A stretch of 64,000 nt of DNA, from IMG/VR virus record IMGVR_UViG_3300013121_000054, positions 9,250-73,249 of that record. One strand, written 5' to 3'. This stretch comes from a virus (Duplodnaviria; Caudoviricetes). Positions 703 to 63,482 of this stretch are shown here, piece after piece. Position 1 is the first letter of the stretch, and each line of letters opens with the position of its first letter. Both the position numbers and the translations under genes were made by a program. A model generated the notes under the pieces. It saw nothing but the letters and a program-made list of their open reading frames with translations, searched no databases and was not told the DNA's origin.

Positions 703-942
703 TCCCGATCAGCAGAGGGTGCGGATCTTTGATCCAATGCTAATGCTGAGACACCATAGTCACAGTAGGTTGTGTTGTGCCGTGCTTGTATGAAATAGAG
801 ACAAGAATTTCAGCGGAGTTACACAATGGAACCGTTTCGGCGCCGTGTTGGTAACCATAAGCGGTGGTCATACATACTGAGCCAAGCCTGCTACGGCAGA
901 CCAAATAATATGCAGAGCCCAGGGTGAGTCACACACCTAAAA

Positions 943-968
943 GCAGCCCCGAAAGGGGCTGCCGTTTT
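943..968. terminator. Bidirectional intrinsic terminator between convergent arms
   Basis: GCAGCCCC-GAAA-GGGGCTGC hairpin flanked by AAAA and TTTT. Confidence 0.85.
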
Positions 969-1560
969 ATGCACACTTCCAGATCAGCCTGGTGCCACTC
1001 CACGCAAGATGCCCGGGTCGCAGCGACTTGCCACCAGGTGGAATCAAATCTCTATACCAGTTCAGCTTTCGTACTTCTTCCAGGGAGTTGCGATCGAAGA
1101 GGTGGCGCTCGACAGCCCGCCGCCTGACCAGACCGGTCAGAATAACGCCCTTGCGCTCCCCGTGGAACCACTCATCAGCACCATCTGCAAAGCCATGCAA
1201 ATCGCCTGCGCAAAGTTTGTGAAAGCTCTCGGCAGTATCCCAGCCCTTGCCGTTATAAGACCAGCTCAGAAAAGCTGCTTTCTGCCCGGGTGTCATCTTT
1301 GCAGCGATGGCAGCCGGCACTTTGTGCACGAAGATCTCATAGCGCCGCTGGATGCCCTCGGCAAGCCATTTGTCTGCGGTTTCGCGGGTGATGTGCATCG
1401 GATGCGCAGAAAGAGGTATTGCGGTACCCCAGCCGATGGTCGCCTGCAGGTGCTCCTCCCCCTTCACGATATAGCTGTCGAGATGGCAGTTATCACTGGC
1501 CTCGAAATGCTCGATCACTGGCAGGGTGATAGCAAGAGTAGCGGGATCTATCGCGGTCAT
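967..1560 (-). CDS. Endolysin, GH24 phage lysozyme family
   Basis: IEHFE..L.SY...TIGWG N-terminus, ALLSWSYN-like AFLSWSYNG, and C-terminal LTGLVRRRAVERHLF. Confidence 0.9.
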   Translation of the reverse strand: MTAIDPATLAITLPVIEHFEASDNCHLDSYIVKGEEHLQATIGWGTAIPLSAHPMHITRETADKWLAEGIQRRYEIFVHKVPAAIAAKMTPGQKAAFLSWSYNGKGWDTAESFHKLCAGDLHGFADGADEWFHGERKGVILTGLVRRRAVERHLFDRNSLEEVRKLNWYRDLIPPGGKSLRPGHLAWSGTRLIWKCA

Positions 1561-1829
1561 TTGGAATACTGCTCGACAAGCTGAGCAACGGCTTGGCAGA
1601 CCTGCTTCTCATGCCCGCCGAAAAGGCACCAGGCACCAAAGCCCACGGCTGCGCCGCCGCCAACATAGAGCGGAAAAACTAAGACCTTTCTCGTGTAGTG
1701 CCCGGCTTTTTGTACCAGGACTTTCACGACCCCCGGCTTTTTAACCGGCTCGGGAGGAGTCAAGTCGTCTGCATAGACGGCTTGTGTCGAGAGAATTGCT
1801 ACCGTGAGCACCTTAACGAGAGTTTTCAT
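1557..1829 (-). CDS. Small exported protein in the lysis cassette
   Basis: Signal-peptide-like MKTLVKVLTVAILSTQAVYA, Pro-rich linker, hydrophobic C-terminal stretch; overlaps the lysozyme start. Confidence 0.6.
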   Translation of the reverse strand: MKTLVKVLTVAILSTQAVYADDLTPPEPVKKPGVVKVLVQKAGHYTRKVLVFPLYVGGGAAVGFGAWCLFGGHEKQVCQAVAQLVEQYSK

Positions 1830-2133
1830 CTTTCTTCTTCTCCAGATATGCCTTCTTGCGATCTTTTGGGAAAGCGAAGGCGATGATTATTGCCAGGGCA
1901 GACAGGCTCGACCAGAGGATTCGCTCTTGATGCCAGGGCTCGTGCCGAATCAGACAGTCAATCCAAGTCAGCATCATATAGACCATCGGTGTAGCAGCGA
2001 CGGTCTGACCACAGCGGCGAACCACATCAGCCTTTGATTCCGTCAAGTGGTCTTCGCACTTAACGCAAAGGTGAGTAGTTATCTCTCCGTCGAATGGCGG
2101 CTCTTCTGATTGTGGTGCTGGCAGCTCAGCCAT
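1813..2133 (-). CDS. Putative holin-like membrane protein
   Basis: Hydrophobic segments followed by a basic C-terminus (PKDRKKAYLEKKK); upstream of the endolysin. Confidence 0.5.
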   Translation of the reverse strand: MAELPAPQSEEPPFDGEITTHLCVKCEDHLTESKADVVRRCGQTVAATPMVYMMLTWIDCLIRHEPWHQERILWSSLSALAIIIAFAFPKDRKKAYLEKKKDENSR

Positions 2134-2273
2134 CTGTGCGGATTCCTATAGTGAAGCAAGCCGCAGGCCGCACACACAAAAGCCACCGGCAATACAATGT
2201 CCTTGAGTAAAGCGATCAAATCCATTGGGTGTGTTCCTGTCTGTTTTGAGAGTCACAAGAGCCCGAGGGCTCG

Positions 2274-2690
2274 CTATTTTGTCAGCTCGTCCGCGGCTTC
2301 CTTGAGAATTGCGGGTGCTGACTGAGCCAAGAACATTGCGCGCTTTTGGATCGCGAAGAGTCTTGGCAATGCGTGGAACAGCACCAGGAGATCGGCGCCA
2401 TTCAAATACTTGTCTGCTTCGATCGTTAACACGCCGATAGCTTCAGAGAATTTTTTCTCTGCGAGATCACTTAGGACTACCGGGCCGCTTTCCACCGATG
2501 CCTTCTCCATCTTTTCGAGCACTGGATCAAGCTCGGCATTCAGAGCAGCAAAGTCATCTTTGATCTGTGCCAGATCGGCGTGACCATCATGATCACCATC
2601 GACCTTCTCAAACTTATCTCTGGCGTGATCTACCGAGACCTTAGCCTCCGCCTGTTTTTCTTGGATGAAGCTCTTGATTGGATTGAACAT
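2274..2690 (-). CDS. Hypothetical helical protein
   Basis: ORF 2274..2735; more likely start is ATG 2690 (MFNPIK) behind GGTGG. Confidence 0.55.
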   Translation of the reverse strand: MFNPIKSFIQEKQAEAKVSVDHARDKFEKVDGDHDGHADLAQIKDDFAALNAELDPVLEKMEKASVESGPVVLSDLAEKKFSEAIGVLTIEADKYLNGADLLVLFHALPRLFAIQKRAMFLAQSAPAILKEAADELTK

Positions 2691-2780
2691 TTCCACCACC
2701 GAGGAAAGGGATTTTGAATGCCGTGTATTGTGCACAAGACATAATGCTAAGCATGGTGCAGGTTTCCTGCACCGTCAAAG

Positions 2781-4253
2781 CTAATAATCGATATTTTGCT
2801 TCTCTGCGACCACAGTAGTCGCATCGAGTGGAGATGGTTGAGGATTCAGCGTGTCTATCTCGATGTAGATCTTGTCTGTCGGAAGCAAGTGCAGGCTGGC
2901 CGATGTGCCAGTCAGCACAAGAGTATTGGCTGAATCGGGAGAAAGTGTGCTGAGGTCAAGCGGTCCACCATTAATCAGGGTCGGCCCGCCATAATTCTTG
3001 GTGATAATCAGCGTACCACCAGGCGCGCCACCGACCGAAATTGTCAGTCTCGTGATATCGCACTCACGAACCGGTGGCAAATAGGTGTAATAAGCAGTGT
3101 TATCAGCGAGCGCCAAGCCACCGCCCGGCGTGAAAGTGAGCAGCTCGCGCTTCGCCGCCGGCCCAATGATTGCCTGCTGGAAAAGATTTTGAACCGCCAC
3201 CACGCCATTCAGCAGCGGATTGAGCAGTGTCTTGTGATCGAGAGTCTGCGTACCATTCACGGTGGCCATTGTGTCGGTGGCTTCAGGAACCGTTACCGTC
3301 GCCCCTGCCGCAGTCTCCAGAGAATTGCTACCGAGCTTCGGGGCTGCGGTGAAGGTCTGCTTAAGGCTGAAAGTCTGCGCCGCATCGGTCTTGGCAGTAT
3401 TGCTGCTGACACTAACGGTGGTGGCGCCACTCGCAGTGGCAATGTTTATACCAGTGCCCTGTGTAAGCACCGTGCCTTGCGGGTAGTTTGGATCGGCAGC
3501 AGTGAGCACCACATGCGCCTGCTGGAGTGAATTGCCGTTTTTGTAGATCGGTGAAAGGGCAGCCAGGCGGGTAATGGCTGTAACCGTGGAGCCATTGCTG
3601 ACCACTTTCTGGAGAGCAAGCCCGGGCTGACCAGTAGGTGCCGCCGCGCCATTTGTCACAGCCACATGATTAACCGAGCCATCGCCGAGCAGGTAATCAT
3701 AAGTATCTTTGCTGGCGGTGTAGGTATAGCTATAGCCGCTCGACACCACACGGATGCCTTGTGAATAGGCGATTCCAGAGGGAGTGGTGACTGCAAAGCC
3801 GCTACCCGGCACCGAGCCTAAGAGCCCCGAGACTACCCAATCTGCAAATACATCGCCAGTGGTCAGCTTCGGTGTCAGATCCTTGTCGGAATACTGCCGC
3901 CAGACGGCCGCGCCGACTGTCGGATCTACGCAGACATATGCCTGCTTCGCTACAGCATCGATCCAGAGCGAGCCGATGCCATAACCGTCTGCCGAGTCGT
4001 CACCCACCGCAGGTGCGACAGATGCGCTCAGATTAGTCTTCGGACCATTGAGCGACTGCCAGCTCGTGCCGTTATACATCCAAAGCACGCCATTGTTTAG
4101 CACGTAGGTCTTATTGGCGGTTGGATTCGGGATCGCGCTTGTGGACTGGTTAAAATACAATCCGACAGAAGACGCAGTAGCCCAAGCAAAGGGCATAACA
4201 CATGCCGCAATGCCGATAAGCAGAGCGATCTTCTTCTTGTTACGCAGCATCAA
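2781..4253 (-). CDS. Tail fibre-like protein with N-terminal signal peptide
   Basis: Fibre motif APAVGDDSADGYGIGSLWID..AYVCVD..GAAVW; Thr/Ala/Gly-rich beta segments; N-terminus (M)LRNKKKIALLIGIAACVMPFAWA. Confidence 0.75.
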   Translation of the reverse strand: MMLRNKKKIALLIGIAACVMPFAWATASSVGLYFNQSTSAIPNPTANKTYVLNNGVLWMYNGTSWQSLNGPKTNLSASVAPAVGDDSADGYGIGSLWIDAVAKQAYVCVDPTVGAAVWRQYSDKDLTPKLTTGDVFADWVVSGLLGSVPGSGFAVTTPSGIAYSQGIRVVSSGYSYTYTASKDTYDYLLGDGSVNHVAVTNGAAAPTGQPGLALQKVVSNGSTVTAITRLAALSPIYKNGNSLQQAHVVLTAADPNYPQGTVLTQGTGINIATASGATTVSVSSNTAKTDAAQTFSLKQTFTAAPKLGSNSLETAAGATVTVPEATDTMATVNGTQTLDHKTLLNPLLNGVVAVQNLFQQAIIGPAAKRELLTFTPGGGLALADNTAYYTYLPPVRECDITRLTISVGGAPGGTLIITKNYGGPTLINGGPLDLSTLSPDSANTLVLTGTSASLHLLPTDKIYIEIDTLNPQPSPLDATTVVAEKQNIDY

Positions 4254-29664: not shown

Positions 29665-31215
29665 CTAAATGCCTCCCGCTGGTGGTAATTCTGGTGTGAC
29701 CGTAGCATCCAGATTGTCTTTCGCCAATGACTCATTTCGCTCTGGGATCTGATTTGCACTGATGCGCGGCAAATCGAGGTGATCGGTGATGTAGTCAGCA
29801 AGAGTGGGTCTAGGTATGATTTTTGCCTCATCGAGCTGCGCCACGCCCGTCGCCATCTGCTGCATTTCCTGCGGAGTAGCGGTGTACATGCGCGGCCAGT
29901 TCAGCCCGAGCCCATCAACTTCTGATTCAGATACACCCTGCATTATCGGGTGCTTCTTGCGAATAGCCAGCACAGCCATCCGTTTGACCATCCCCAGATA
30001 TGTAGTGCTGCCATACGAAGATCGCAGCTCCTGGCAAAGATCGATTGTGTCTTGATCAAGCATCTCGGCAGCTTTGCCGGTGATCAGCCCCGCCTGCTCA
30101 TCGGGATTGCGCCTCTGAGCGGCGATCTGCTCAGCCATAAACTTCTTGAGCTTGTCGCAAAACTCGAGCGCGATCTTGATACCATTGCCGGTCATTTCCA
30201 AAAGCTTGGCGTCGCCCTTCTCGCGCTCGACACCATCCGTCTTCATGCCACCCTTCATCATGAGCATGATGTGAGGCGCCCTCAACATAGTCTGAGCTGC
30301 GCCCTTGTCTTTGTTAAACTCTCCAGCCATCGAGCCGATTACAACGATCTGAGGATTGGCGTTATAGCGGCACGCCCTGCCGATCTGCGAAAAGGTGTAA
30401 TCGAACTCTATATTCATCGGGAGCGCACCAGCAAAAGTGCAGCTACCGTCTGGTGAATAGCCACCCGCCAGATTCTCAAACCACTGCGCGGGCACAAAGT
30501 TTAAATCGTGCTGCACCTCCTCTTCCGCGATCAGCCGGCTCTCGTGCCTGGGATTGGAAGGCGTGTAATCTGACTCCTTTATCGGGTAATAGGTCTTCTC
30601 TACCTGGCTCTCATAATCAATGACGCTCCAGTAAGACTGAGCGGGCACAATCGGCTTGCCTTTGTAGTCAACCGTGAAACCCTTCGCAAGAAACTCATAC
30701 CCTGCTGATGTGTACGCGACGCGCAGGCGCGCGAGATCTCCAAACTTATCAAATACCGGGTGGCACCACTTGGCTCGATGCGCCTGAGCCCTCATGCGTG
30801 CATAACCGCTCTTTTCGTCGGCCACCAGCTTGAAAGTCACAGCCACCGAGCCGACCGATCCCCAGGTGATCACCTGGGGCATGAGTTTCTCAAGCCCAGC
30901 CTCTTCGGTGAGGCGCATTATCTTATTGAGCACCGTCTCATTGTCATGCACCAGTCTTGGTGCGTTGCGCCCGGTGAAAAGCTTGCGCGAGCAGACTCTT
31001 GCTACCATGGCAGCCATATTGAAGGGCGCCGAAGGTCTGCGATTGTAGATTGGGATGTACCGCTTCAGTCCGTCTTCTTCTTGCGAAAAGTCGTAAGGCA
31101 GATGGTCGTAGAAGGTGCCATCCAAGAAGCGATCGAAGATGTCTAAGCGCTGATAGCGCGGATCGGAGCGCTGCCACGGCTGCCAAATTATCGAAGACGC
31201 AATAGTCTTAAGCAT
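29665..31215 (-). CDS. Portal protein
   Basis: 516 aa directly after the large terminase; GSVAVTF, P..F.K.G.L, SG.A..ML motifs. Confidence 0.88.
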   Translation of the reverse strand: MLKTIASSIIWQPWQRSDPRYQRLDIFDRFLDGTFYDHLPYDFSQEEDGLKRYIPIYNRRPSAPFNMAAMVARVCSRKLFTGRNAPRLVHDNETVLNKIMRLTEEAGLEKLMPQVITWGSVGSVAVTFKLVADEKSGYARMRAQAHRAKWCHPVFDKFGDLARLRVAYTSAGYEFLAKGFTVDYKGKPIVPAQSYWSVIDYESQVEKTYYPIKESDYTPSNPRHESRLIAEEEVQHDLNFVPAQWFENLAGGYSPDGSCTFAGALPMNIEFDYTFSQIGRACRYNANPQIVVIGSMAGEFNKDKGAAQTMLRAPHIMLMMKGGMKTDGVEREKGDAKLLEMTGNGIKIALEFCDKLKKFMAEQIAAQRRNPDEQAGLITGKAAEMLDQDTIDLCQELRSSYGSTTYLGMVKRMAVLAIRKKHPIMQGVSESEVDGLGLNWPRMYTATPQEMQQMATGVAQLDEAKIIPRPTLADYITDHLDLPRISANQIPERNESLAKDNLDATVTPELPPAGGI

Positions 31216-32582
31216 TACCTACCCCACATGCCTAACAATTCTTCGACGCCTTCATAATTTTCCGCAAGCTCTTCTTGCAGGTGATTGAATCGAATCATCT
31301 GCTGAAGTGCTTGGGATTGACAATCGACAATATCGTCTTTCGTGGATTCTGCGGTATAGCTGCAAAGCTCCTCGATGTAATCCTCGACCCACGGCAGGCA
31401 CTCTGGATCTGGTATCAGTACCCTGCCGGTCTCATACAAATGGCTGACAGCAGAGGCTCTGGCGAACTTATTTTGATCCGGATTGATCCCTACGATCGGC
31501 AGGCGGGTGTGCTCCTTTGCCATCTGAATGATCGAGCTGCCGCTGCTCTTATCCTCCATGTAGATAATGTCTGCGAACCACTTGTAGGCATACTTTGGCA
31601 CCAGCTTCATGAGAGTTGGAAAAGCCATCTTGCCGCGCACCATATCAAGCAAGTAATAGCCAGCATGCCCAATGCCCCAGGTAGTGCCGACCGTGTAATC
31701 GTTTTTCTCGCCAGTCTTCTGCCCCGGGTCCCACGATTGCACGATTTGCAGCAGCTCTGGGTAGCCCAGCTTCAGACCTTCGGCGCGGTGCACTACCGCA
31801 TCGTAAGGATTCCACTTGTAATACTGGAACCAGTCGCGCTTGTAGACATTGCCCTCTTCTGAGATATCCCAATCGCCCCTGATCCACGCCCGCACCAGGT
31901 GCTTCTTGCCTGTGCCCTTCAGGCGTTTGATGTAAAAGGGGTCATTCTCCGCAAGGCTCGGATTATGGATCAACAGTGCCGGAATATATACAATCCAGGT
32001 CTCAAGCTGCTTGCTGTAGAAAGGGATTCTCGGTGGTGCTGGAGTTATGTAGCGTTTCTTAACCCATTCGTGACCCACGCCACCAGGGTTGGTGGTTGCC
32101 CATATACAGCATGGTGCACCAGCGGCGGAGCGCAAAGAGCCGCGCAACTTATCGAGCTGATCAGAGTTTGGCCAGGTCGTAAGCTCCTCAAGGATGAGCA
32201 CCGAATATTCCTGCCCGAGATACTTCTCTTCATCGCCTTTGTTATCGATGTAGCCCAGGCGCAAAGTCGCACCATTGGGGTGCACCCAGGTGTGCTTGCC
32301 CACCTGGTAATGCCACCCAAGAGGCGTAAGGATCGCCTTGAGTTTCTTCTCATTGAAATCTTCCAGATCCTGGTAAGACTTACGGATCAGGAGCCCGACA
32401 GCAGCCTCGCCCCAGATCTGCGCATATGCTGCCCACTTCAGCGCTACTGCAAATGATTTGCCACCACCCCGAGCACCACCAAATAGGATCTCTTGAATCG
32501 GGCAGGTTATGAATGCGGTCTGCGGTCCTTTGTGTGGCTTGTAGATCTTCGCCACCAGAGGCTTTGGATCAGGCAAGATCAT
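31215..32582 (-). CDS. terL: Terminase large subunit
   Basis: Walker A LFGGARGGGKS; Walker B LILEELT; TTNPGGVGHEWVK; nuclease SWDP..K..DY and DDIVD. Confidence 0.96.
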   Translation of the reverse strand: MILPDPKPLVAKIYKPHKGPQTAFITCPIQEILFGGARGGGKSFAVALKWAAYAQIWGEAAVGLLIRKSYQDLEDFNEKKLKAILTPLGWHYQVGKHTWVHPNGATLRLGYIDNKGDEEKYLGQEYSVLILEELTTWPNSDQLDKLRGSLRSAAGAPCCIWATTNPGGVGHEWVKKRYITPAPPRIPFYSKQLETWIVYIPALLIHNPSLAENDPFYIKRLKGTGKKHLVRAWIRGDWDISEEGNVYKRDWFQYYKWNPYDAVVHRAEGLKLGYPELLQIVQSWDPGQKTGEKNDYTVGTTWGIGHAGYYLLDMVRGKMAFPTLMKLVPKYAYKWFADIIYMEDKSSGSSIIQMAKEHTRLPIVGINPDQNKFARASAVSHLYETGRVLIPDPECLPWVEDYIEELCSYTAESTKDDIVDCQSQALQQMIRFNHLQEELAENYEGVEELLGMWGR

Positions 32583-33099
32583 CCGATATCAGCTCCGCAT
32601 CTTCGCCAAGCATCTCGATCAGGCGCCTGTTGTTTTCCTTCTCGCTCTCGCGAGCTTCGACCTCGACAGTGGCGGCCCACTGCTGTGGATCTTTGATGAT
32701 CTCGGGCATGATGAATTCGATCTTCTTCTCGACGTTGATCGTCTGCTCTTTCGGCTTCTCCTGCCATCCAGCGACGCACTTCAGCCAGAACATGGCATCG
32801 ATCGAGGAGCCAGCGATCGCGCGCTTGTAGACAGAGCCAGCCACATTAGCGGTGGCTTTCGCGCGACCTCTCAGAATGGCCTCGGTCAGCTCGATAGAAT
32901 TCCATTTGAAAGCACCGAAGACCTGGGGGAAGTACCCCAGGTAATTCGCGATCTCGGCGTCGCGCAGCCCCATGCCAGCAAGCATCTCCGCCTGCGCCAG
33001 CTCCTCATCTGTAGGTTTCCAGACTTTCTGCTTGCGCTTGCGCTTGATGATTTTAGAGGGCGCCTGCACCTCTGCTGGTAGTTCACTCTTCTCGATCAT
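32569..33099 (-). CDS. terS: Terminase small subunit
   Basis: HTH (EMLAGMGL.D.EIA.YLG), EAI.RGRA.A...VA..VY.RA..G...AM.FWLK...GW. Confidence 0.85.
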   Translation of the reverse strand: MIEKSELPAEVQAPSKIIKRKRKQKVWKPTDEELAQAEMLAGMGLRDAEIANYLGYFPQVFGAFKWNSIELTEAILRGRAKATANVAGSVYKRAIAGSSIDAMFWLKCVAGWQEKPKEQTINVEKKIEFIMPEIIKDPQQWAATVEVEARESEKENNRRLIEMLGEDAELISDDLA

Positions 33100-33114: not shown

Positions 33115-34440
33115 TTAACCTGCGCTGGCTGGCAAAGGTAATCTCTCGGATTTGAGCTGCTCAAACGTTCTGCCATCACCCTGGAGCGTTGCTGTTTTGC
33201 CAGTATGTTGCTGCCAGCGCGTGACGATCAAATCGACATAGCGCGGCTCAAGCTCCATCAGGCGCCCTTTCCTACCGGTGGATTCGCACGCGATCAATGT
33301 CGAGCCCGAGCCGCCGAATGGATCGAGCACGATATTATTCTGGCTCTGGGTGGAGTTGCTGATCGCCTTAACTGGCAGCGCTACAGGCTTCTGAGTTGGG
33401 TGCTCTTTCTCGCTGCGCATAGGGCGATCGATATTCCAAACCGTGCCTTGATTCTTCTCGCCATAGAACTTGTGCGCTCCGCCCGGCTTCCAGCCATAGA
33501 GAATCGATTCGTGTTGCCAGTGGTAATCTTGCCGACTAAATACAAATTGCTGCTTTGCCCACACCAGCACCTGCTTCATCAAGAGCCCCGAGTCTTTGAA
33601 GGCTTGGCGGAAAATCAAACCCTCACTATCAGCATGGCAAACATAAATCACGGCGCCTGGTTGGACCGCTTGATACATGATTGTAAAAGCATCTAGCAAG
33701 AACTGCTGAAAATCGGCATCCGGCATATCGTCGTTTTGAATCTTCGGACCCTTGCCGAATGTTCTGCCTTGCGGGTTGTGATCACCTCCACAGACCGCTA
33801 GATTGTATGGTGGATCGGTGAAGACCATATCGGCGAGCGAGCCGTCGAGCAGCTTCAACACATTGGTGAGCACCAGGGAATCGCCACACATCACGCGATG
33901 ATCGCCGCAAATCCAAATATCTCCAGGCATCGAGGCTGCCTGCGCGGGCGGCTCTGGCACTGCGTCTTCTTCGGTTTTCGGCTCCTCCTTGGTGACGTTA
34001 AACGTAAGCAGCTCTTGTAGTTCTTCCTTGTCAAAACCGGTGATACTCATGTTGAAATCATCCAGGTTAAGATCGCCAAGCTCCAGCGAAAGCAGAGACT
34101 TATCAAAGTCTGCATTAAGCGCAATTTTGTTGTGAGCGATGACTAGAGCGCGCTTTTGTGTAGTAGATAAATGTGTCAATTGAATAGTGGGCACTTCGGG
34201 CATATTGAGCTTAAAAGCCGCCTCCAGCCTGCCATGCCCGGCGATAATAGTTTTCTCTCCATCGATTAAAATCGGATCTACGAAACCGAACTCTCTTATC
34301 GATGCTGCTATTTGCGCGATCTGCTTTTCTGAGTGCACCCGCGAATTTCGTGCATACGGAATTAAATCTGACGTAGAGCGTAACTCGACTTTCAAATTCA
34401 GGTTGCTGATTTCCTGGCTTAGCTTGCTTTTAGTGTCCAT
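33115..34440 (-). CDS. ParB-like domain fused to DNA N6/N4 methyltransferase
   Basis: L.PYARNSRVHS..QI..IAASIREFGF..PILID..AGHGR; VFTDPPYN; HPTQKPV; LDPFGGSGST. Confidence 0.92.
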   Translation of the reverse strand: MDTKSKLSQEISNLNLKVELRSTSDLIPYARNSRVHSEKQIAQIAASIREFGFVDPILIDGEKTIIAGHGRLEAAFKLNMPEVPTIQLTHLSTTQKRALVIAHNKIALNADFDKSLLSLELGDLNLDDFNMSITGFDKEELQELLTFNVTKEEPKTEEDAVPEPPAQAASMPGDIWICGDHRVMCGDSLVLTNVLKLLDGSLADMVFTDPPYNLAVCGGDHNPQGRTFGKGPKIQNDDMPDADFQQFLLDAFTIMYQAVQPGAVIYVCHADSEGLIFRQAFKDSGLLMKQVLVWAKQQFVFSRQDYHWQHESILYGWKPGGAHKFYGEKNQGTVWNIDRPMRSEKEHPTQKPVALPVKAISNSTQSQNNIVLDPFGGSGSTLIACESTGRKGRLMELEPRYVDLIVTRWQQHTGKTATLQGDGRTFEQLKSERLPLPASAG

Positions 34441-35132
34441 ATATCCCTCAAAACCAAAGCCGTCATGCACTGCCTCTCCCGAAGCATTGTATTTAGTATC
34501 AATTTCATTTCCTCAGGACTGCTTCCCGAAAGCTCTATATCAACGATGAAAGACTCAACGCGCTTGTGGCATTTCTTGCATAGCGGAATGAGATTTAGCG
34601 CGGAATTATCACGAGTTAAACGATAAGGTACTATGTGGTGCACATCCAACTTCTTCATCGTGCCGCAGCAAGCGCAAAATGGTGTTACTGCGATGATCTG
34701 CTTGCTGACTTGCTTCCACCGCGATCCCCTTCCGGTCACTCGATCAGGCTTGCACAACCACTTTTGATAACACTTCCGAGAGCAAAAGTTGGCTGATGAG
34801 TTGGAATGCCCTATGCCTTTGACGCGAGATCTGCTCACGCTAAATGCACATTCACAAAACTTGCACATTCGCTCCACCCGCAGTGCAGCTTTTCTGCATA
34901 CGAGAGAGCAATATTTTCGGCAAGATTTGGTGCCGGTCGCCATCTTGATCTGCAAACAATTCAGACAAGCATAAAAGTGTGATGCTTTGCGCCGCGGCTT
35001 CGCTTTGATCGCTCTCGCTCTAACTGCTACCGCACACGCCTTGCAATACAAACGTTTTGAGTCTCTCCTGACTGTCTCGACAGAACCGCATGATACACAC
35101 TCTGCTATCTTGTCTTTTTTACTATGACTCAT
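34419..35132 (-). CDS. HNH endonuclease with Zn-ribbon repeats
   Basis: Multiple CxxC; LDVHHIVPY.....N...NL.PLCKKCHK. Confidence 0.85.
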   Translation of the reverse strand: MSHSKKDKIAECVSCGSVETVRRDSKRLYCKACAVAVRARAIKAKPRRKASHFYACLNCLQIKMATGTKSCRKYCSLVCRKAALRVERMCKFCECAFSVSRSRVKGIGHSNSSANFCSRKCYQKWLCKPDRVTGRGSRWKQVSKQIIAVTPFCACCGTMKKLDVHHIVPYRLTRDNSALNLIPLCKKCHKRVESFIVDIELSGSSPEEMKLILNTMLRERQCMTALVLRDIWTLKAS

Positions 35133-41525: not shown

Positions 41526-42005
41526 CTATTTCTTGCGCAGCTTCACTACTGCATCTGCCGTCTGGTTGCGCGTCTTCTGCAACTTCACAGCAAGATTACC
41601 CAGAGCCTTCGCATGCAACCGCTCGCGATGCTCAAGCTCAGTGATCCGCGCATTCAGCGTCACAAATAACGCCTGCAATGTCTTCTCATCCTGGTCTTTC
41701 GCACCATACAACCGATTGATCGCGCCCTGCATGCCGCCAACCTTGCGCTCCAGCTCAGCAATCCGCCCTGTGATCAGATCCGCGAGAAGCTTCGTTTCTG
41801 CATCCACCGAGTCAGCCGCCGACACCGAGGGTGATATCGTCAAATCGTGGTCATTTATCGTCTCGTCCGCATTGCTGCCCTGCATGACACCGGCTGGTGA
41901 CACATCTGCCGGCCCAAGCTTGATCCAATGACCCTGCGGCACTGCCAAAACTGGCGCCGCCAGCAGCAAATTCGCCGCCAAAATCGCATAAATCGCCTTT
42001 CTCAA
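41526..42005 (-). CDS. Exported coiled-coil protein
   Basis: Signal-peptide-like MRKAIYAILAANLLLAAPVLA; heptad C-terminal half; RBS GGAGGAG. Confidence 0.65.
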   Translation of the reverse strand: MRKAIYAILAANLLLAAPVLAVPQGHWIKLGPADVSPAGVMQGSNADETINDHDLTISPSVSAADSVDAETKLLADLITGRIAELERKVGGMQGAINRLYGAKDQDEKTLQALFVTLNARITELEHRERLHAKALGNLAVKLQKTRNQTADAVVKLRKK

Positions 42006-42459
42006 GACTTCTCCTCCTCAGTGTTGTGCAGCCACTCCGCAATTGCATTGCAGAGCGCCGTGTCGTTATCGTTCAAGTCGCCGCGCGACTCCAAAATCAT
42101 CAGCGAAAGCCGCATAATGCCTCGAAATTCGTCGGATGTTACGTCGTTCATTGCGTCTGCTCCGCCCTCAAATGCCAAAGTCGCCGAGCAGTCGATCGCT
42201 GCGCGCATCACCCTCAGCAATAACCGGGTGCTGATGATTGTCATGCACCGCTGCTGCCGACTCGGCGAGGATCTGCTGAAGCTCGCTAGGCTCCTGCCTA
42301 AACAGCAGCGCACGTGGCGGCGCTTCCGTCAAATCCTGAGCGGACGACAGCGCTCAGGAAGCTTTTAGAGGCGAAGGATTGTGCTGTGCGAGCCATACCA
42401 GTTCAGAAGCCACACCATGGCTGGCCTAGGCTCCCGAGGCAATGGCTCCCTCATCAGTC

Positions 42460-42660
42460 AAGCTTCCGGCGCTGGCTCACTCATGATCTCTTGCAGATCC
42501 TCAAAATCAACCGCCTCGACCATCGCAGCATTTATGCTCATGGTCTCATTAGCGCCGTCTGGCTTGCGCCCATACACCGACTTCAAAGTCAGGTTGCAGT
42601 AACCAGAACAAAATCACCAACCTTCAGCCCTACGCCAAGTCTGTCATGTGGCACACACAT
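42460..42660 (-). pseudogene. Probable frameshifted/internally deleted small phage gene
   Basis: A strong AGGAGG RBS starts MCVPHDRLGVGLKVGDFVLV, which stops early; the continuation GYCNLTLKSVYGRKPDG..SINAAMVE is in another frame. Confidence 0.4.
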
Positions 42661-42669
42661 ACCTCCTAA

Positions 42670-42840
42670 AGTCTCAAAATTTTGAAAAAATTTTTTCGCC
42701 GCTTCTCCGCACCGCGAGCCAGTATGAGGGCTGTCAAGGAGTGACCGGAAATTGGGAAATTTGTGAGTGGGGGTAACGCCCCGGCCCAGGCTGACCGTGA
42801 TTTTAGGGGCACCCCCCCCCGCCTGCCCGCCGCGCCGAGA
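42670..42840. other. Putative genome end / packaging-initiation (pac/cos-like) region
   Basis: AAAATTTTGAAAAAATTTTTT tract and GGGGCACCCCCCCCC run at the head of the late arm; assignment is inference. Confidence 0.4.
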
Positions 42841-42954
42841 GCCGCTGCCCGTGCGGGTCTTGGTCTCTGCATGCGCATCAGGCTATGCCTGTTTCGGTAG
42901 TGGCAATGGTAATCGCTCACACCCAGGTCACGCAAGTGTAAAACGTCTCACCAG

Positions 42955-42988
42955 GACTTGCCATATTCCTACAACTTTATGGCAAGTC
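42955..42988. promoter_or_regulatory. loxP-like 13+8+13 bp tyrosine-recombinase site
   Basis: GACTTGCCATATT-CCTACAAC-TTTATGGCAAGTC (arms 11/13 inverted), 38 bp before the recombinase ATG; third half-site TATGGCAAGT at 43056-43065. Confidence 0.65.
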
Positions 42989-43025
42989 GGGGTATGATTG
43001 AAACGTAGTGATGAGGGATTGAGGC

Positions 43026-43742
43026 ATGAGTAAAGACGCACCCCAGGGACAGAATTATGGCAAGTTGCCCGGCACGCTGCGCAGGCGTCCGAATGTGGAA
43101 TTGAGACCTCGCGGTGAATACCTTACACCAGCGGAGGTGAATAACATAGCCAGCGCTGCGCAGTTGAGCAGTAGATATCCACTGCGCGATTGGCTCATGG
43201 TGGTGATGGCTTACAAGCACGGGCTGCGCGCCAGCGAGCTGTGCGATATGCAGTGGGAGCAAATCATGCTGAGCGAAGCTCGCATCAAAATCAATCGAGC
43301 GAAAATGGGCAAGCCATCAATGCACCCGCTGGACGGTGATGTCTTGCGAGCCTTGCGCAAACACCAGAGATCACAGGAGCTGGGGCAGAAGTTTGTTTTC
43401 ACCACAGAGCGCGGCACTCCGATGAGCACCGACACCTTTCATAATCTGGTGCGCCGCGCTGGCAAAGCCGCCAAGATGCCCTTTGATGTCCACCCCCACA
43501 TGCTGCGCCACGCCTGTGGCTATGCCCTTGTGAATGCTGGATATGATACCCGATTGATCCAAGACTACCTGGGGCACCGCAGCATTCAAAGCGTGGTGCA
43601 ATACACCGCACTGAGTGAACAGCGATTCAAAGAATGCACCAAGATTCTGGCACTCGGCAGGAAGCACAAGGCAAAAGACGACCCATTCAAACAACTGCCA
43701 AACGCGGAAGACTTCAAGGGATTCGGAAAGCTGATCGTATAA
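43026..43742 (+). CDS. Small tyrosine recombinase (FimB/FimE-like resolvase/invertase)
   Basis: YLT..EV, RD.L...AY.HGLRASEL, K, HPHMLRHACGY.L...G.D.R.IQDYLGH.SI..V.YT; all catalytic residues present; no arm-binding domain. Confidence 0.93.
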   Translation: MSKDAPQGQNYGKLPGTLRRRPNVELRPRGEYLTPAEVNNIASAAQLSSRYPLRDWLMVVMAYKHGLRASELCDMQWEQIMLSEARIKINRAKMGKPSMHPLDGDVLRALRKHQRSQELGQKFVFTTERGTPMSTDTFHNLVRRAGKAAKMPFDVHPHMLRHACGYALVNAGYDTRLIQDYLGHRSIQSVVQYTALSEQRFKECTKILALGRKHKAKDDPFKQLPNAEDFKGFGKLIV

Positions 43743-44101
43743 GATCAGCCTACAATCAGGCTTTCGAGCGAGGGTGCCCCGGCAGGCGGGGGTGCTCTCG
43801 CGGGCGATTACGCGCGCGATTTAAAACCATGTCGAGAAAGACGGCAGTAACCCTCCTTCCCCCAATTCCGCCCCCTCGTTTCCAAGCGCGACCGATAATG
43901 CTCTCGAAACTACCATGTAGGATTTGTGCACCATTTATGCACCATTCATGCATGATTTATGTATGATATTTTTTGACTAAAACACGCATGAATAGAGGGT
44001 TTGCATAGCATAACGCATAATAATAGAGTCGCGTATGTGTGTATACGGAAAGACGCAGATTTACAGTTTATGAAAATGTATTAGATAGTAATAATGCCCA
44101 A

Positions 44102-44377
44102 ACTATCAACTACCAAGACTATCAAAATGGCTTTGGGACACTGCAAATGGCGAGGGGGGGGGACAGCGGCCCCGATAAATTCCCCGAAAGCAAAGCCCTA
44201 TCATCGCGTGGCTGTTTTTTTTTGGCTTATAGCCATGCACTGAAGCTACACTCAATCCTAATATTTCGTGGCTCTTAGTATCGATCCGGCGCGGGTCGTT
44301 TGTTGTTATTCTCAAAACTATCAAGCGAGTTGATCGAAATCGCTGGTATCGAATTCGGTGCTCAGCAGCTTGATAGT
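44102..44377. repeat. ACTATCAA iteron-like repeats
   Basis: ACTATCAA at 44102, ACTACCAA at 44109, ACTATCAA at 44118; ACTATCAAGC 44317-44326 inverted to GCTTGATAGT 44368-44377. Confidence 0.6.
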
Positions 44378-44439
44378 GTGGAAGGGATCGAGGCTTCTTG
44401 TTTAATCAAAGCCCTCGGTGAAACTCTAATAGATATGCG

Positions 44440-44988
44440 GTGAATATGACTCTGGCGGAAGCGCTTTCCTATATAAATGAAGACGGCTCCGAGTACGTTA
44501 TCTATTGCGACTGTGTGCGGTGCTCAGTAGCGCTCTTCTTGGTTGACCTGGGGGTCGAGCCATTTGAGTGGCATGGTCCGATGGTGCCGGCAGCGATCGT
44601 GCTTGATCAATATAGAGATTGGGCGGCTGACCTTGGGTTTAAGAATCTGGCGTCGGGCACAATGCTTGGTTTGCTCCTCAGGGACTGGAACTACAGCAAG
44701 CAGCGAGGCGCGAGAGCAAATAGCTACTTCGTGACCGACTTGTCGGCGCCGAAGAGGCTTGTCTATAAGCACCTCGATCAGCACCGCCGCATCGCGGCGC
44801 AAAAGCATCGCGATATGCTGAATCCGCCAGCGGTAAAACACTGTGTTGGGCGGGTGCGACGGGTGAAGCGCACCCTCAGGACATTCATGCTCTGGCTGTC
44901 AGAGCAGCAGAGTAACGATCTGGCTGTCGCCATTTCTGAGCTCTATTGGCAGTTCGACAAAGAGGCTGCTGCTGGAGGTGCGAGCTGA
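44440..44988 (+). CDS. DNA-binding protein with a primase-C-terminal-like winged helix
   Basis: VLDQYRDWA...GFK....LG.LL....Y.K.R....N.YF resembles the D5_C wHTH. Confidence 0.5.
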   Translation: MNMTLAEALSYINEDGSEYVIYCDCVRCSVALFLVDLGVEPFEWHGPMVPAAIVLDQYRDWAADLGFKNLASGTMLGLLLRDWNYSKQRGARANSYFVTDLSAPKRLVYKHLDQHRRIAAQKHRDMLNPPAVKHCVGRVRRVKRTLRTFMLWLSEQQSNDLAVAISELYWQFDKEAAAGGAS

Positions 44989-58963: not shown

Positions 58964-59461
58964 ATGACGACGCAAGAAGAACTGCAAGAGCAGGTAAACG
59001 AAATGACCGAAGCGATCGAAGAGCAGAGCAGAGTGATTGCAGTAGTGCCCGAGGCTCTCGCTCGCATCGAGCATGACATTACTGCTCTGAGAGACCGCAT
59101 CGAGCAGAATGGTACATTGCCGGATTTGAGTGCCGCTGCTGAAAAGATTCGCGCAAATACGAGCGTGCTGCGTGTCGCCCTGGAGCAAGCGAAAGCTATT
59201 GACGCCCAGGCTACCTCGGCACCGGTCGAAGCACCGGCACCGGCTGAAGCAGCACCGGCTGAAGCAGCACCGGCTGAAGCACCGGCTGAAGCACCGGCTG
59301 AAGCACCGGCACCGGCTGAAGCAGCACCGGCTGAAGCACCGGTCGAAGCACCGGCTGAAGCAGCACCGGCTGAAGCACCGGTCGAAGCACCGGCTGAAGC
59401 AGCACCGGCTGAAGCAGCACCGGCTGAAGCACCGGCCGAAGCACCGGCCGAAAGCCAATAA
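58964..59461 (+). CDS. Coiled-coil protein with Ala-Pro-Glu (PAEA) low-complexity tail
   Basis: ATG 58964 after GGAGA; heptad N-terminal half, then repeated APAEA. Confidence 0.75.
   Translation: MTTQEELQEQVNEMTEAIEEQSRVIAVVPEALARIEHDITALRDRIEQNGTLPDLSAAAEKIRANTSVLRVALEQAKAIDAQATSAPVEAPAPAEAAPAEAAPAEAPAEAPAEAPAPAEAAPAEAPVEAPAEAAPAEAPVEAPAEAAPAEAAPAEAPAEAPAESQ
59219..59452 (+). repeat. Coding tandem repeat (12/15-bp units GCACCGGCTGAA / GCAGCACCGGCTGAA)
   Basis: Directly visible. Confidence 0.95.
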
Positions 59462-59520: not shown

Positions 59521-59884
59521 CATTTTAATAAAAATCCGAAAAGCCCCATACACCCATATCAGACAATGCGAATCGGAGAGTCAGGCACGGCGCAGAAAAG
59601 CTCATTCATTCGTGAAAGCTTCAGCGGCAGCTTGTTTCGAGCATTTGCCACAAATGTGCGTTTATGTAATCATAAAAACACATACGCATGCTCTATCATT
59701 CGCCATACACTATGAGCGCGTCGGAATCCGTTAACGCATAAGAAACATATTCGGCATGAAGTGCTCAAGGCTGTGCTAAATTGCGCGCGTCCAGCCAGCA
59801 TGACTACTCTGCCAGGTGCATAGCTGCCGCTGGGTCACAAAAGCTCGACCCATAGCACTTGCACGCTATAAGGGGGGGGATGAA

Positions 59885-60853
59885 ATGCAAGAATTGCGGA
59901 GCGGCGCAAGCCGTGTGATTACGCTTAGGCAGGCCTGGACCGACTTTAGAAGAGTGAGAGCAAGAACGCTCAAGCCAAAAACTCTTATAAGCTATGACTA
60001 CCTTTTAAATCGATATCTCAAAGAGTGGCTTGATAAGCCACTCCCAGAGCTGACAAAGGATCTTGTTGAGCTCAAGCACCGAGATCTCACTTTGCACAAT
60101 GGCGGCACTCAGGCAAATCTAGTATTTCGTGTGCTGGGTTCGATTCTGGGCTTTGCTCAGTATCGATATGACGATCAAGCCGGCAATCCGGTGCTCATGC
60201 AAAACCCAGTAAAGCGACTCAGCCAGATGAAGGCGTGGAACCGACAGAAGCCCCGCAAGAGCTTTATTCGCGATCACCAGCTTGCTGACTGGATGCGGGC
60301 GTGCGGTGCGCTGAGCACCTCGACGCGCCGAGACATCCTGATCTTGTTACTCCTTACGGGATTGCGTAAGAGCGAAGCGCTCGATCTGGAATGGCAGCAT
60401 ATCGACCTGGAGGGCCGCACACTCACGGTGCCAAATCCAAAAAATGGCGATTTGCACATCCTGCCTCTATCTGACCACCTCTTCAAAATGCTTCAGAGAA
60501 GACGCTCAGAGGCTCATAGAAGCGTGCGATTTGTGTTTAACGGTGAGCGCCCAGGTACTAAGCTTGGGAAGAATCTGGACTTCTGCCGGTGGGTCTCGAT
60601 CAAATCTGGCGTCCAATTCATGCCGCATGATCTGCGGCGCACATTTACGACAGCAGCAGCCTGCCTCGGGCTCTCTCCTTTCGTGATCAAGCGCCTTCTC
60701 AATCATCGAGGAGACGTTACTTATAACTACTTCGGCGAATCTGTCGAGCACCTGCGCCAGCCTATGCAGATGATCACAGATCGTCTATTGGGGCTGGCTC
60801 AATATCACATCCTCGATCCGGCGTCAAGGGAATGTAACGACTCCCGGGAATGA
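59885..60853 (+). CDS. int: Prophage tyrosine integrase
   Basis: SAM-like N-terminal domain (TL.QAW..F.....LKPKT..SY); LLLLTGLR.SEA..L.W..IDL, KNG..H..PL, HDLRRTF, LLNH, Y; likely start ATG 59885. Confidence 0.93.
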   Translation: MQELRSGASRVITLRQAWTDFRRVRARTLKPKTLISYDYLLNRYLKEWLDKPLPELTKDLVELKHRDLTLHNGGTQANLVFRVLGSILGFAQYRYDDQAGNPVLMQNPVKRLSQMKAWNRQKPRKSFIRDHQLADWMRACGALSTSTRRDILILLLLTGLRKSEALDLEWQHIDLEGRTLTVPNPKNGDLHILPLSDHLFKMLQRRRSEAHRSVRFVFNGERPGTKLGKNLDFCRWVSIKSGVQFMPHDLRRTFTTAAACLGLSPFVIKRLLNHRGDVTYNYFGESVEHLRQPMQMITDRLLGLAQYHILDPASRECNDSRE

Positions 60854-63482
60854 CGGCCAATTGTATATCCTGAACGGGGTTAGTTGTGCACCAGCTTCTA
60901 AATTCTTTGGCGCTATCTAATGAATTGACGAATTGTCTGTATTCGGGAAGGTCTTCTGCATTGCCCACCGCGTTGCCGAGCAGATCGAGATAAATGCATC
61001 CGTCTTCCGTAAACCAATCGACCAGGTTCATGCGCCGAAATATGGTCAATCCAAGAGCAACTGACATTTTGCTGGCCGCCATTGCCGCCGCCAGCTTGTC
61101 GCCGTGCACCTGACCATCGCGTTTGTTCACGGCGAAACGAATGATGCCGAAGAGTCGCTTGAGAAAGCCTGCCGGATCATCGCAATCGGATTGATCGGCG
61201 CCGACCAGGTAGACGCTTTGAGCGCTGGAGCGCGTGACGATTTCTTGAAAGACTTTGGCACTCGGCGGAAACTGCCAGAATATCAGGTGCGCCTTATCTT
61301 CAATGGAAGTGCGATCGTCGAACGTCACATTGGCAATCGTGCTTGCCGATTCGCCGAAAATCGCCACCTGCGAGCCGAATTTCTCGATAGCACGGCTAAC
61401 GACGTCTTCGGGTTGAGTATGACCTCTTAGATCTTTCCAGTTCTGGCGAGTAACACTCTTGAGCCGCTTAATATTGTCGGTGTCGCTGGCTACTTCTAAT
61501 TCGTCGGCGAATTCAGGTTTGCTGGCCACAGTCTTTGCCAGGCGATCCAGGTGTTGCGCCACTTGCTTGGACAATACTGGCGAAGGCGTATCGTGCGCGG
61601 GCGCGACCGTAGATGGACGTTCGTAAACTTCCGTGGCGTACTTGCCGTCGTCTTTGCTGGAACGCCAGTCGCTCACGACAAGTTGCAGTCGCTCGCGCCC
61701 GTTGTAGACGTTGATTTCAGGCGAGAACACCAATTCGATTTCTTGCCCGTCAAACGGAACCTTGCCTCGGCTGTTCCAAAGCACGCACTCGAATTCAGAA
61801 TCGACAGCAGGAGATTGCAACATGAGGCGGTGGTGCTTTCCTTCTTTGCCGAGCACTCTTGTGCTGTTGCATACGAGGTTCTGCATACACAGAAGCGGTT
61901 TCTTGTTACCGATGCCGAATGGCGCAAGCACGGCAAGTTCTTTGGCCAGATCGGTCGAGACTTCGGCGCCCGTCACGATTGTGTCGATTTCCACTGACGG
62001 ATTGGACGGTTTGCCCGCAAGCATTTTGTTGCAGGTGTCTGTCAGCCCACGGCACAGCGCCTGTGCTTTGGCTGCCTCTACACTGAATCCGGCTGCCATC
62101 TTGTGACCGCCCCAGCGTGAAAGAAGATGCTCATTAGCCTTCAGAACTTCGTAGAGGTCAATGCCCTCGACACCACGGGCGGAGCCTTTTACGATGCCTT
62201 CTGACTCGTCGAGCTCACCGATGAATACAGGCTTGTGAAACTTTTCGACCAGTCTTGATGCAACAATTCCCACCACGCCATGGTGCCAGCCTGCGTCGTA
62301 AATCGCAATCGCACGATCTCGCTCCAGGTCGAGCTTGTTCGTAATCATTCTGTCAGCTTCGGCAAAGATGCGCTCGCATAGCTCCTGCCGCTTGGTATTT
62401 TCGACTTGAAGCTGCTTGGCTAGATTGTCGGCGACCGAAGAATCGTCGGTAGTCATCAATTCTACTGCGGCCCTGGCGTCAGCCAGGCGTCCGACTGCGT
62501 TAATGCGCGGGGCCAGTCCGAAGCCGACCACATCGGTATCTTCGCTCTTGCGCACCTGGGCAAGCAACGCTTTGATGCCGGGGCGAACAGAGTTGAGCAG
62601 AGCTGGAAGACCAACTTTTACGAGATAACGGTTTTCGCGCACCAGGGGCACCAGGTCGGCAATCATGCCCAGGGTGACAAAATCGAGCAGAAGCGGCACT
62701 TCTGACTCAAGCCCTTTGTCGACGAGAAGAGCTTCGCACGTCTTGTAAGCGACACCTACGCCAGGCAGATGATAAAGCGGGTGGTTCTCGTCGTTGATGC
62801 GTTTGGGGTGCACGATACCGGCGGCCGGTGGCAGCAACTCCGGCATCGTGTGGTGATCGAGGATTAGAGTGTCAACTCCTAATTGCTTGGCGAAATTAAC
62901 CTCGGCAAAATTTGATACGCCGCAATCGCACGTAATGATCAGCTTGGATTTATGCTTGCTGGCAAGTATGCTCACCGCCTTCAAATTCAGACCATAGCCT
63001 TCGCTGGAGCGGCTGGGTATGTAATAGTCGACGGAAGCACCAAGGCGTTTGAGCACTGTCAAAAGAACCGAGGTGCCGGTGATGCCATCTACGTCATAGT
63101 CACCATATACGGTGATATGCTCCTTTTGCACGATGGCCTGGTTGATCCGCACGACGGCTCGATCCATGTCGGGCAATTCCATCGGACTTGTCGGCGTATA
63201 GCTCGATGTGTCCAGGAATGACTTGATTGCCTCCACCGTATCGAAACCGCGCCGCATCAAAATGCGAGCAATAATCGGGTGCCCTGTGGCTGCCTGCAGC
63301 ACCTCATTCGATATGTCTTTTTCGACCGGAAACCGCCACGACTTGCTGAAGGCGGAGAGCCTGAGCGGCTCCAGCGCTCCTGTTTCAGTAGTGGATCCTG
63401 TTGTCGATGTAGTCACACGCACCCCCGGCAAGGCGATTTCGATATCGATTGTATATTTACTGATAGTCCAACCTGGCACCAC
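60774..63482 (-). CDS. recJ: Host ssDNA exonuclease RecJ with C-terminal extension
   Basis: YGDYDVDGITG, SEGYGL, ITCDCG, DHH, GFGLAPRINAVGRL, WHHGVVGIVASRL, GGH.MAAG; true start may be ~63416. Confidence 0.97.
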   Translation of the reverse strand: MVPGWTISKYTIDIEIALPGVRVTTSTTGSTTETGALEPLRLSAFSKSWRFPVEKDISNEVLQAATGHPIIARILMRRGFDTVEAIKSFLDTSSYTPTSPMELPDMDRAVVRINQAIVQKEHITVYGDYDVDGITGTSVLLTVLKRLGASVDYYIPSRSSEGYGLNLKAVSILASKHKSKLIITCDCGVSNFAEVNFAKQLGVDTLILDHHTMPELLPPAAGIVHPKRINDENHPLYHLPGVGVAYKTCEALLVDKGLESEVPLLLDFVTLGMIADLVPLVRENRYLVKVGLPALLNSVRPGIKALLAQVRKSEDTDVVGFGLAPRINAVGRLADARAAVELMTTDDSSVADNLAKQLQVENTKRQELCERIFAEADRMITNKLDLERDRAIAIYDAGWHHGVVGIVASRLVEKFHKPVFIGELDESEGIVKGSARGVEGIDLYEVLKANEHLLSRWGGHKMAAGFSVEAAKAQALCRGLTDTCNKMLAGKPSNPSVEIDTIVTGAEVSTDLAKELAVLAPFGIGNKKPLLCMQNLVCNSTRVLGKEGKHHRLMLQSPAVDSEFECVLWNSRGKVPFDGQEIELVFSPEINVYNGRERLQLVVSDWRSSKDDGKYATEVYERPSTVAPAHDTPSPVLSKQVAQHLDRLAKTVASKPEFADELEVASDTDNIKRLKSVTRQNWKDLRGHTQPEDVVSRAIEKFGSQVAIFGESASTIANVTFDDRTSIEDKAHLIFWQFPPSAKVFQEIVTRSSAQSVYLVGADQSDCDDPAGFLKRLFGIIRFAVNKRDGQVHGDKLAAAMAASKMSVALGLTIFRRMNLVDWFTEDGCIYLDLLGNAVGNAEDLPEYRQFVNSLDSAKEFRSWCTTNPVQDIQLAVIPGSRYIPLTPDRGCDIEPAPIDDL

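Follow-up and report, generated by a model that had tools for sequence, protein, structure and literature searches.

Phage P1 provides the precedent for Cre/loxP circularization of terminally redundant DNA, Cre being a protein of 343 aa, and the recombinase TnpI, at 284 aa, is long enough to hold an N-terminal core-binding domain. At the IRS of Tn4430, accessory motifs bind extra TnpI subunits and restrict the reaction to the resolution of sites in direct repeat (PMC2847244), while binding of TnpI to the res site of Tn5401 modulates the expression of both tnpI and tnpA (PMC7157771). XerS and difSL form another gene-adjacent module, composed of a 356-aa recombinase and a site with an 11-bp center (PMC5357621). 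According to the classification of tyrosine recombinases, these enzymes consist of a core-binding and a catalytic domain or carry an added arm-binding domain (PMC8138268). Within an incomplete coverage of the literature, we found no published description of a catalytic-domain-only family or of a three-part site of the kind described below.

Here, we analyzed a 64,000-nt window, corresponding to bases 9250 to 73249 of a 73,249-bp IMG/VR provirus record (all coordinates are those of the window), with a focus on a small tyrosine recombinase gene and the palindromic site directly upstream of it. On balance, sequence comparison and analogy favor, with somewhat better than even confidence, a reading in which positions 42955 to 43066 would constitute a three-part docking and recombination site of this recombinase, of the resolution type and probably serving as an operator as well.

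The recombinase gene and the candidate site upstream of it

The core of the site (42955 to 42988, 34 bp) consists of a perfect 11-nt inverted repeat around a 12-nt center and ends 37 nt before the ATG of the recombinase gene at 43026 (Table 1). A first-pass annotation had described this core as a 13+8+13 site; the site itself is real, and its symmetry is 11-12-11, with only 11 of 13 positions per arm being symmetric when it is read as 13-8-13. The third half-site, which the same annotation had noticed inside the gene, matches the right arm at 10 of 11 positions in the same orientation, starts 78 nt past the right-arm start and 67 nt from the core, and occupies codons 11 to 14 of the recombinase gene. 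The 12-nt center presumably holds the crossover region, with cleavage positions that we infer, and gives the site its direction; related TTC-type centers were found at three homologue loci (L054, L071, and L099). No sigma-70-type promoter was detected at the site by a simple scan.

Table 1. Positions of the recombinase cassette and of the packaging genes in the window
Feature	Position	Strand	Remarks
Portal	29665-31215	minus	
Large terminase	31215-32582	minus	
Small terminase	32569-33099	minus	
ParB-like nuclease / DNA methyltransferase fusion	33115-34470	minus	
HNH endonuclease	34419-35132	minus	
Left arm, core site	42955-42965		GACTTGCCATA; perfect reverse complement of 42978-42988; in register with the left arms of 57 homologue loci
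Asymmetric 12-nt center	42966-42977		TTCCTACAACTT; the 12-nt gap is the family rule
Right arm, core site	42978-42988		TATGGCAAGTC
Third (accessory) half-site	43056-43066	plus	TATGGCAAGTT; direct repeat of the right arm
Tyrosine recombinase gene, 238 aa	43026-43742	plus	intact open frame; catalytic domain only; FimB-sized
GC-rich hairpin	43768-43801	plus	13-bp stem, 25 nt past the stop codon

Considering the record by itself, three distinct perfect inverted repeats that are 11 nt or longer and separated by no more than 20 nt occur in its 73 kb, compared with a mean of 0.3 in 30 shuffles, and three half-site matches were counted against 1.05 expected, a number reached in 12 of 100 shuffles and thus only modestly unusual alone. 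What is decisive for an origin beyond chance is the comparative evidence, that is, the family-wide conservation of geometry and register and the co-variation of the motifs (described below). Scans for a second site with exact and one-mismatch half-sites and with a degenerate full site, covering the window and the whole 73-kb record, returned candidates at chance level only. Thus, the second copy that the first-pass annotation had suggested looking for is absent from the 73-kb record, and the prophage is unlikely to undergo internal inversion or excision. The half-site variant of the prophage, ATGGCAAG, was unique in the collections searched, with no occurrence in 185,579 species genomes or in IMG/VR, which agrees with the earlier suggestion of a new recombinase/site pair; two matches in metagenomes turned out to be unrelated palindromes.

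The sole Pfam domain of the recombinase is PF00589 ("Phage_integrase"; residues 32 to 199, E 9e-40), and the catalytic residues (R68, K93, H158, R161, H184, and Y193) are all in place and do not vary among 33 family members. Solved recombinases could be aligned with residues 32 to 207 only, and with their C-terminal domains only. An AlphaFold model based on 33 sequences (mean pLDDT 81.5) comprises one confident domain (about residues 31 to 195), a disordered N terminus, and a low-confidence tail; pLDDT stays below 50 for residues 1 to 20 and averages 57 for residues 21 to 30, with no helical bundle ahead of the catalytic domain. In superposition, the model came closest to XerA and to isolated integrase catalytic domains, with TM-scores (relative to the target) of 0.72 for isolated catalytic domains versus 0.4 to 0.55 for two-domain enzymes, and Cre ranked 39th or lower at 14 to 17% identity. 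Neither an arm-binding domain nor the usual core-binding domain is present in the enzyme. Since the sequence alignment and the confident part of the model both cover the catalytic domain only, it is FimB-sized rather than Cre-sized, so that the earlier description of an intact, FimB/Cre-sized recombinase lacking an arm-binding domain stands except for the likeness to Cre. A 33-residue C-terminal tail of the prophage enzyme is absent from the aligned relatives.

The first-pass annotation had further proposed a lox/Cre-like module for circularization or dimer resolution next to a probable genome end at 42670 to 42840. In its circularization form, the proposal holds that the recombinase joins terminally redundant virion DNA beside that end, and a palindromic site adjoining a recombinase gene in a phage fits it. 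However, the enzyme is not Cre-like, the HNH and terminase genes lie 8 to 11 kb away and occupy, together with the portal gene, 29.6 to 35.1 kb, and nothing marks 42670 to 42840 as an end, so that the proposed end finds no support and Cre-like circularization appears very unlikely. Placement of an HNH gene next to those for terminase is typical of cos-type phages; here, this layout points to genome ends near 33 to 35 kb, and packaging may be of the cos type. A Cre-like step would not be needed by such a phage, because it circularizes by end annealing. The part of the proposal that fits best is dimer or cointegrate resolution, given the res position of relatives in Tn3-family transposons and their occurrence on plasmids (see below).

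Phage relatives that might delimit the cassette were sought by comparing 24 kb with phage records (megablast) and among viral contigs carrying both flanking genes, which gave nothing useful. The separate integrase pointed out in the first-pass annotation was located at 59816 to 60853 as a 345-aa ORF, about 16.8 kb from the recombinase. Just left of it on the minus strand, ARAGORN predicted two adjacent tRNA-SeC-like genes (anticodon TCA; 59272 to 59354 and 59368 to 59447), which overlap long ORFs and could be phage opal-suppressor or selenocysteine tRNAs or part of an attachment site. In addition, a RecJ-like gene of 902 aa (60774 to 63482, minus strand) abuts the integrase. Its best match in the 185,579 species genomes, from an unclassified MAG, shared only 56% identity, and the next ones, from Clostridia, were no more than 40% identical, suggesting that the host lineage is poorly represented.

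The recombinase cassette sits where leftward and rightward genes diverge, at the head of the early region. The hairpin after the stop codon resembles a terminator without a U tract and folds within an 88-nt stretch at -39.1 kcal/mol (z -2.8). With its own site, gene, and hairpin, the unit looks like a self-contained cassette.

The top curated models for the recombinase were those of the FimB/FimE "tyrosine-type DNA invertase" (NF007370 and NF007371, E about 1e-40), and a FimB-type switch would flip a segment between inverted sites, for example, between the copies of the 12-nt sequence CCCCCGCCTGCC at 42816 to 42827 and 43781 to 43792. This inverted pair (CCCCCGCCTGCC and GGCAGGCGGGGG, within 42806 to 42827 and 43772 to 43792) is unique in the record and brackets the gene where the transcription arms diverge, and a 12-nt match arose in only 3 of 1,000 shuffles of the downstream flank. 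However, the scores of 140.8 and 136.8 bits fall far under the NCBIfam cutoffs of 221 and 222, and the half-site co-varying with the enzyme has no relation to the 12-nt repeat. The right copy of this repeat belongs to the hairpin past the stop codon, in whose loop and 3' stem it lies, and the left one falls within a poly-C tract, where it follows a run of nine C at 42812 to 42820. Moreover, flanking repeats are not a family feature, as five of the homologue loci tested reach E < 0.01 with sequences that all differ and the window's own pair misses that threshold, and the true site has no inverted second copy in the 73-kb record. The 12-nt pair is probably incidental, although it may mark a cassette boundary, and an inversion switch seems very unlikely.

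Relatives of the recombinase and their sites

No close relative of the recombinase protein was found among 5.8 billion clusters, and its identity to thousands of ∼205-aa proteins from Alphaproteobacteria, Betaproteobacteria, cyanobacteria, and viral contigs is 48 to 59%. Among 111 loci fetched, a homologue could be placed in 109, and 57 of these (proteins 48 to 57% identical) carry an 11-12-11 palindrome in a shared register, located -46 to -74 nt from the position aligned with the first codon of the query (-109 in L014 and L015; -71 in the window). The family consensus is nACTGTtCGtA, a 12-nt center, and TnCGgACAGTc. A third half-site in right-arm orientation starts at +100 or +101 from the site start in 53 of 58 sites (the window counted among them), and no other half-site position was conserved across the 58 sites; the offset noticed in the prophage is thus a conserved one. 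The distance from core end to start codon ranges from 24 to 37 nt across loci, with the third motif in the first codons, where codons 11 to 14 read N-Y-G-K in the phage and N-R-T in most relatives.

The three motifs vary in concert. Variants found in all three included CGAACAG, CGGACAG, GGGACAG, CGGAAAG, GCGCACAG, and GAGAACAG, and the ATGGCAAG of the phage copy, as opposed to CGAACAG, represents the most divergent specificity observed. The third motif differed from the arms of its own locus by 0.58 mismatches per nine core positions, compared with 1.92 (sd 0.11) when loci were permuted and 1.54 as the lowest value among 2,000 permutations, a test that is inflated by the relatedness of the loci, yet several distinct variants each change in concert. 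In the coding half-site, synonymous Arg codons (CGA, CGG, AGA, and CGC) track the arms, indicating that the constraint acts on the DNA; with a half-site inside the coding sequence, the N-terminal residues of the enzyme would be partly dictated by its own DNA target. This family-wide co-variation argues that the motifs are docking sites of the enzyme itself, and the conservation of the arms together with recombinase homologues, which the first-pass annotation had named as a check, was borne out by the 57 loci in register.

The same complementarity could in principle act in RNA: in the mRNA leader, the left arm would switch between two partners, the right arm and the third half-site, and translation would be controlled in this way. 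Three-way complementarity permits two alternative helices, and a local hairpin forms in the predicted fold. However, the fold of 42945 to 43070 is not unusual (z -1.2), and there is no G-U enrichment: among 109 non-complementary arm positions, which are located at the outermost and innermost positions of the arms, 29 (27%) are G-U compatible and 80 are true mismatches. In addition, the outer ACTGT is conserved in sequence and not just in pairing. Such mismatches, together with the conserved ACTGT, argue for protein recognition rather than an RNA stem, and an RNA element is the least probable of the explanations considered. Within 42000 to 44500, no Rfam family reached its gathering score, the only weak match being at 44206 to 44312 (E 0.75).

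Between genomes, the homologous DNA is typically bounded by the outer edge of the left arm on one side and the stop codon on the other. A conserved partner gene did not emerge from all-against-all clustering of neighbor ORFs or from a Pfam search of 150 neighbors; the apparent neighbor clusters consisted of antisense ORFs lying within the recombinase gene, and the neighboring genes are of scattered mobile-element types (ArdC, other integrases, Tn3 transposase, and HsdM). Some genomes hold several family copies of the recombinase gene. Extra core sites in L083 and L108 have centers patterned like that of the gene-proximal site and were read as direct repeats by inspection of the spacers. A self-mobile cassette of site plus gene was considered and rejected, given that a hybrid site after the gene occurs in no locus. 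Inverted repeats flank the recombinase unit in L097 (60 nt, 85% identity, about -318 to -260 upstream and +53 to +112 past the stop) and in L106 (18 nt, perfect); they differ from each other, are unrelated to the half-sites, and may be host repeat elements.

These boundaries also bear on integration or capture, in which the core would act as a simple attP or attI and fuse the phage with a replicon or circular DNA carrying a matching core, as an alternative route beside the main integrase. Arm-less simple integrases do exist in phages, and the Brujita integrase gave a weak sequence match to the recombinase (5vfz, E 1e-6) and ranked 38th among structural matches. Moreover, the outer edge of the left arm is precisely where homology between family loci stops, the DNA upstream being unrelated, and several replicons of one strain carry the recombinase-plus-site unit. 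However, the downstream boundary at the stop codon is equally sharp, so that both breaks simply reflect a compact unit; no locus has a hybrid second site after the gene, and no matching site was found in the species genomes or IMG/VR, the two metagenome palindromes being unrelated. We consider integration or capture quite unlikely.

A proposed resolution role and its alternatives

Homologues were found on 120 plasmid records, including several replicons of one strain. At three loci, on Skermanella pTT6-5 (L115), on a Legionella plasmid (L113), and in Pantanalinema (L107), the recombinase gene and a Tn3-family tnpA are transcribed divergently and enclose the site, an arrangement that puts it in the classical position of a resolution site. 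The Skermanella element is present on three replicons, and its site keeps the 0/+23/+101 geometry with all three motifs upstream of the annotated start. The divergent tnpA of the Legionella pneumophila plasmid (NZ_CP021280.1) is missing from the PLSDB gene table and was detected by tblastn as a full-length Tn3-family transposase frame (locus positions 813 to 3845, minus strand), 50% identical to the Skermanella one; downstream on this plasmid lie a second small tyrosine recombinase and a second Tn3 transposase. No tnpA homologue was found in the prophage window.

The combination of an inverted-motif core, a motif in direct repeat, and a position upstream of the gene, as in the TnpI/IRS build, is the reason why we read the site as resolution type. 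Accordingly built, the complex would have two subunits on the inverted 11-nt arms, with strand exchange taking place within the asymmetric 12-nt center, and a further subunit on the third half-site 78 nt downstream. This accessory subunit would give the site a direction and probably favor recombination between two direct-repeat copies on one molecule, and the outcome would be the resolution of dimers or cointegrates, much as the accessory motifs act for TnpI at the IRS of Tn4430. Since the site reaches from about 70 nt ahead of the start codon into the first codons, its occupancy would probably also repress the recombinase gene. With a single site in the prophage, the possible substrates would be only two copies of the phage genome or another replicon with a matching site. 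From these comparisons we infer that the protein binds the motifs, at which positions it cleaves, that resolution is preferred, that the enzyme represses its own gene, and that the phage may benefit; candidate roles in the phage are the monomerization of replicating circles, the undoing of cointegrates, and simple hitchhiking.

Several observations count against the resolution-type reading. The prophage site is single copy in the 73-kb record, where no product of recombination was observed, and a phage with its own integrase and probable cos packaging has no obvious need for a resolvase. Tn3-family transposase genes are neighbors at only 3 of about 115 loci examined. In addition, one accessory motif 67 nt off, as opposed to the two adjacent ones in the IRS, means that the analogy with a topological filter may fail, and placement over the 5' end of the gene would suit a purely regulatory role equally well.

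In such a regulatory role, the three motifs would solely mediate self-repression, by promoter occlusion together with a roadblock or loop at the first codons, and there would be no recombination of consequence in the phage. The position of the site, always directly over the 5' end of the gene, and its single copy in the record are in line with this, and resolution sites can double as operators (PMC7157771). However, the catalytic residues are invariant family-wide, which argues for selection on catalysis and against an operator only, and relatives occupy the res position of Tn3-family transposons. Moreover, the Skermanella motifs all lie upstream of the annotated start, indicating that motif placement does not depend on the coding region. 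We regard a role as an operator only as unlikely, although with some real chance of being right.

If the resolution-type reading is extended beyond the phage, the unit would represent a very large class of catalytic-domain-only tyrosine resolvases, each with a palindromic core, an accessory half-site 78 nt away, usually in the first codons, and a site that co-evolves with its enzyme; this broader proposal is tentative and falls a little short of an even chance. Should the reading hold, genes currently labeled "integrase" or "FimB/FimE" on thousands of plasmids, transposons, and phages could be annotated with their exact 112-bp target, and the concerted change of three motifs and enzyme would offer a data set on how DNA specificity changes in tyrosine recombinases. 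The broader proposal, if true, would mean that Tn3-family transposons, plasmids, and phages have resolution modules of a fourth type and that nature supplies, as a library, hundreds of mutually orthogonal pairs of a compact (about 200-aa) recombinase and its site; at about two-thirds the size of Cre and with naturally orthogonal sites, such enzymes would be of practical interest to genome engineers. In phage biology, the question arises why an integrating and probably cos-type phage should maintain a resolvase cassette at the start of its early region.

Comparison with described recombination modules

With FimB and FimE of Enterobacteriaceae, to which it is related, the prophage enzyme shares the size class (about 200 aa), the catalytic-domain-only build, and the best-scoring curated models, although it stays below the cutoffs of these families. 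The substrate of FimB and FimE is an invertible promoter with an inverted repeat on either side, whereas the prophage has one three-part site without an inverted partner.

The Cre/loxP system of P1 resembles the prophage unit in its phage-borne tyrosine recombinase, a 34-bp palindromic site near the gene, and the lack of an arm-binding domain. However, Cre clamps its DNA with two domains, whereas the prophage enzyme has a single one, and loxP is a 13-8-13 site without an accessory motif, in contrast to the 11-12-11 site with its conserved third half-site. The two phages differ as well, as P1 is a plasmid prophage with headful packaging, and the prophage described here integrates and has an HNH-terminase layout.

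XerS/difSL, and likewise XerH/difH, combine gene and site in one module in which one recombinase binds both arms, and the long 11-bp center of difSL is comparable to the 12 nt of the prophage site. In contrast to the two-domain, FtsK-dependent Xer type, which acts at the chromosome terminus, the prophage enzyme is a single-domain mini-enzyme on mobile elements (a prophage and, for its relatives, plasmids and transposons).

The closest resemblance is to TnpI/IRS. In both, the site lies directly upstream of the recombinase gene and consists of an inverted-motif core and one or more accessory motifs in direct repeat that share one recognition sequence; moreover, an IRS-type site carries promoters and its binding regulates expression, and relatives of the prophage enzyme adjoin Tn3-family transposase genes. 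The differences lie in the protein, with the prophage enzyme (238 aa; relatives about 205 aa) comprising the catalytic domain only, and in the site, with 14-nt arms, a 4-nt spacer, and two adjacent accessory motifs in the IRS as opposed to 11-nt arms, a 12-nt center, and one accessory motif 67 nt away, usually in coding sequence. The Tn3-family transposase partner is absent from the window and present only at the Skermanella, Legionella, and Pantanalinema loci. By analogy, the prophage unit would work most like TnpI/IRS, while its protein build, the number and spacing of its motifs, and its context place it outside that system.
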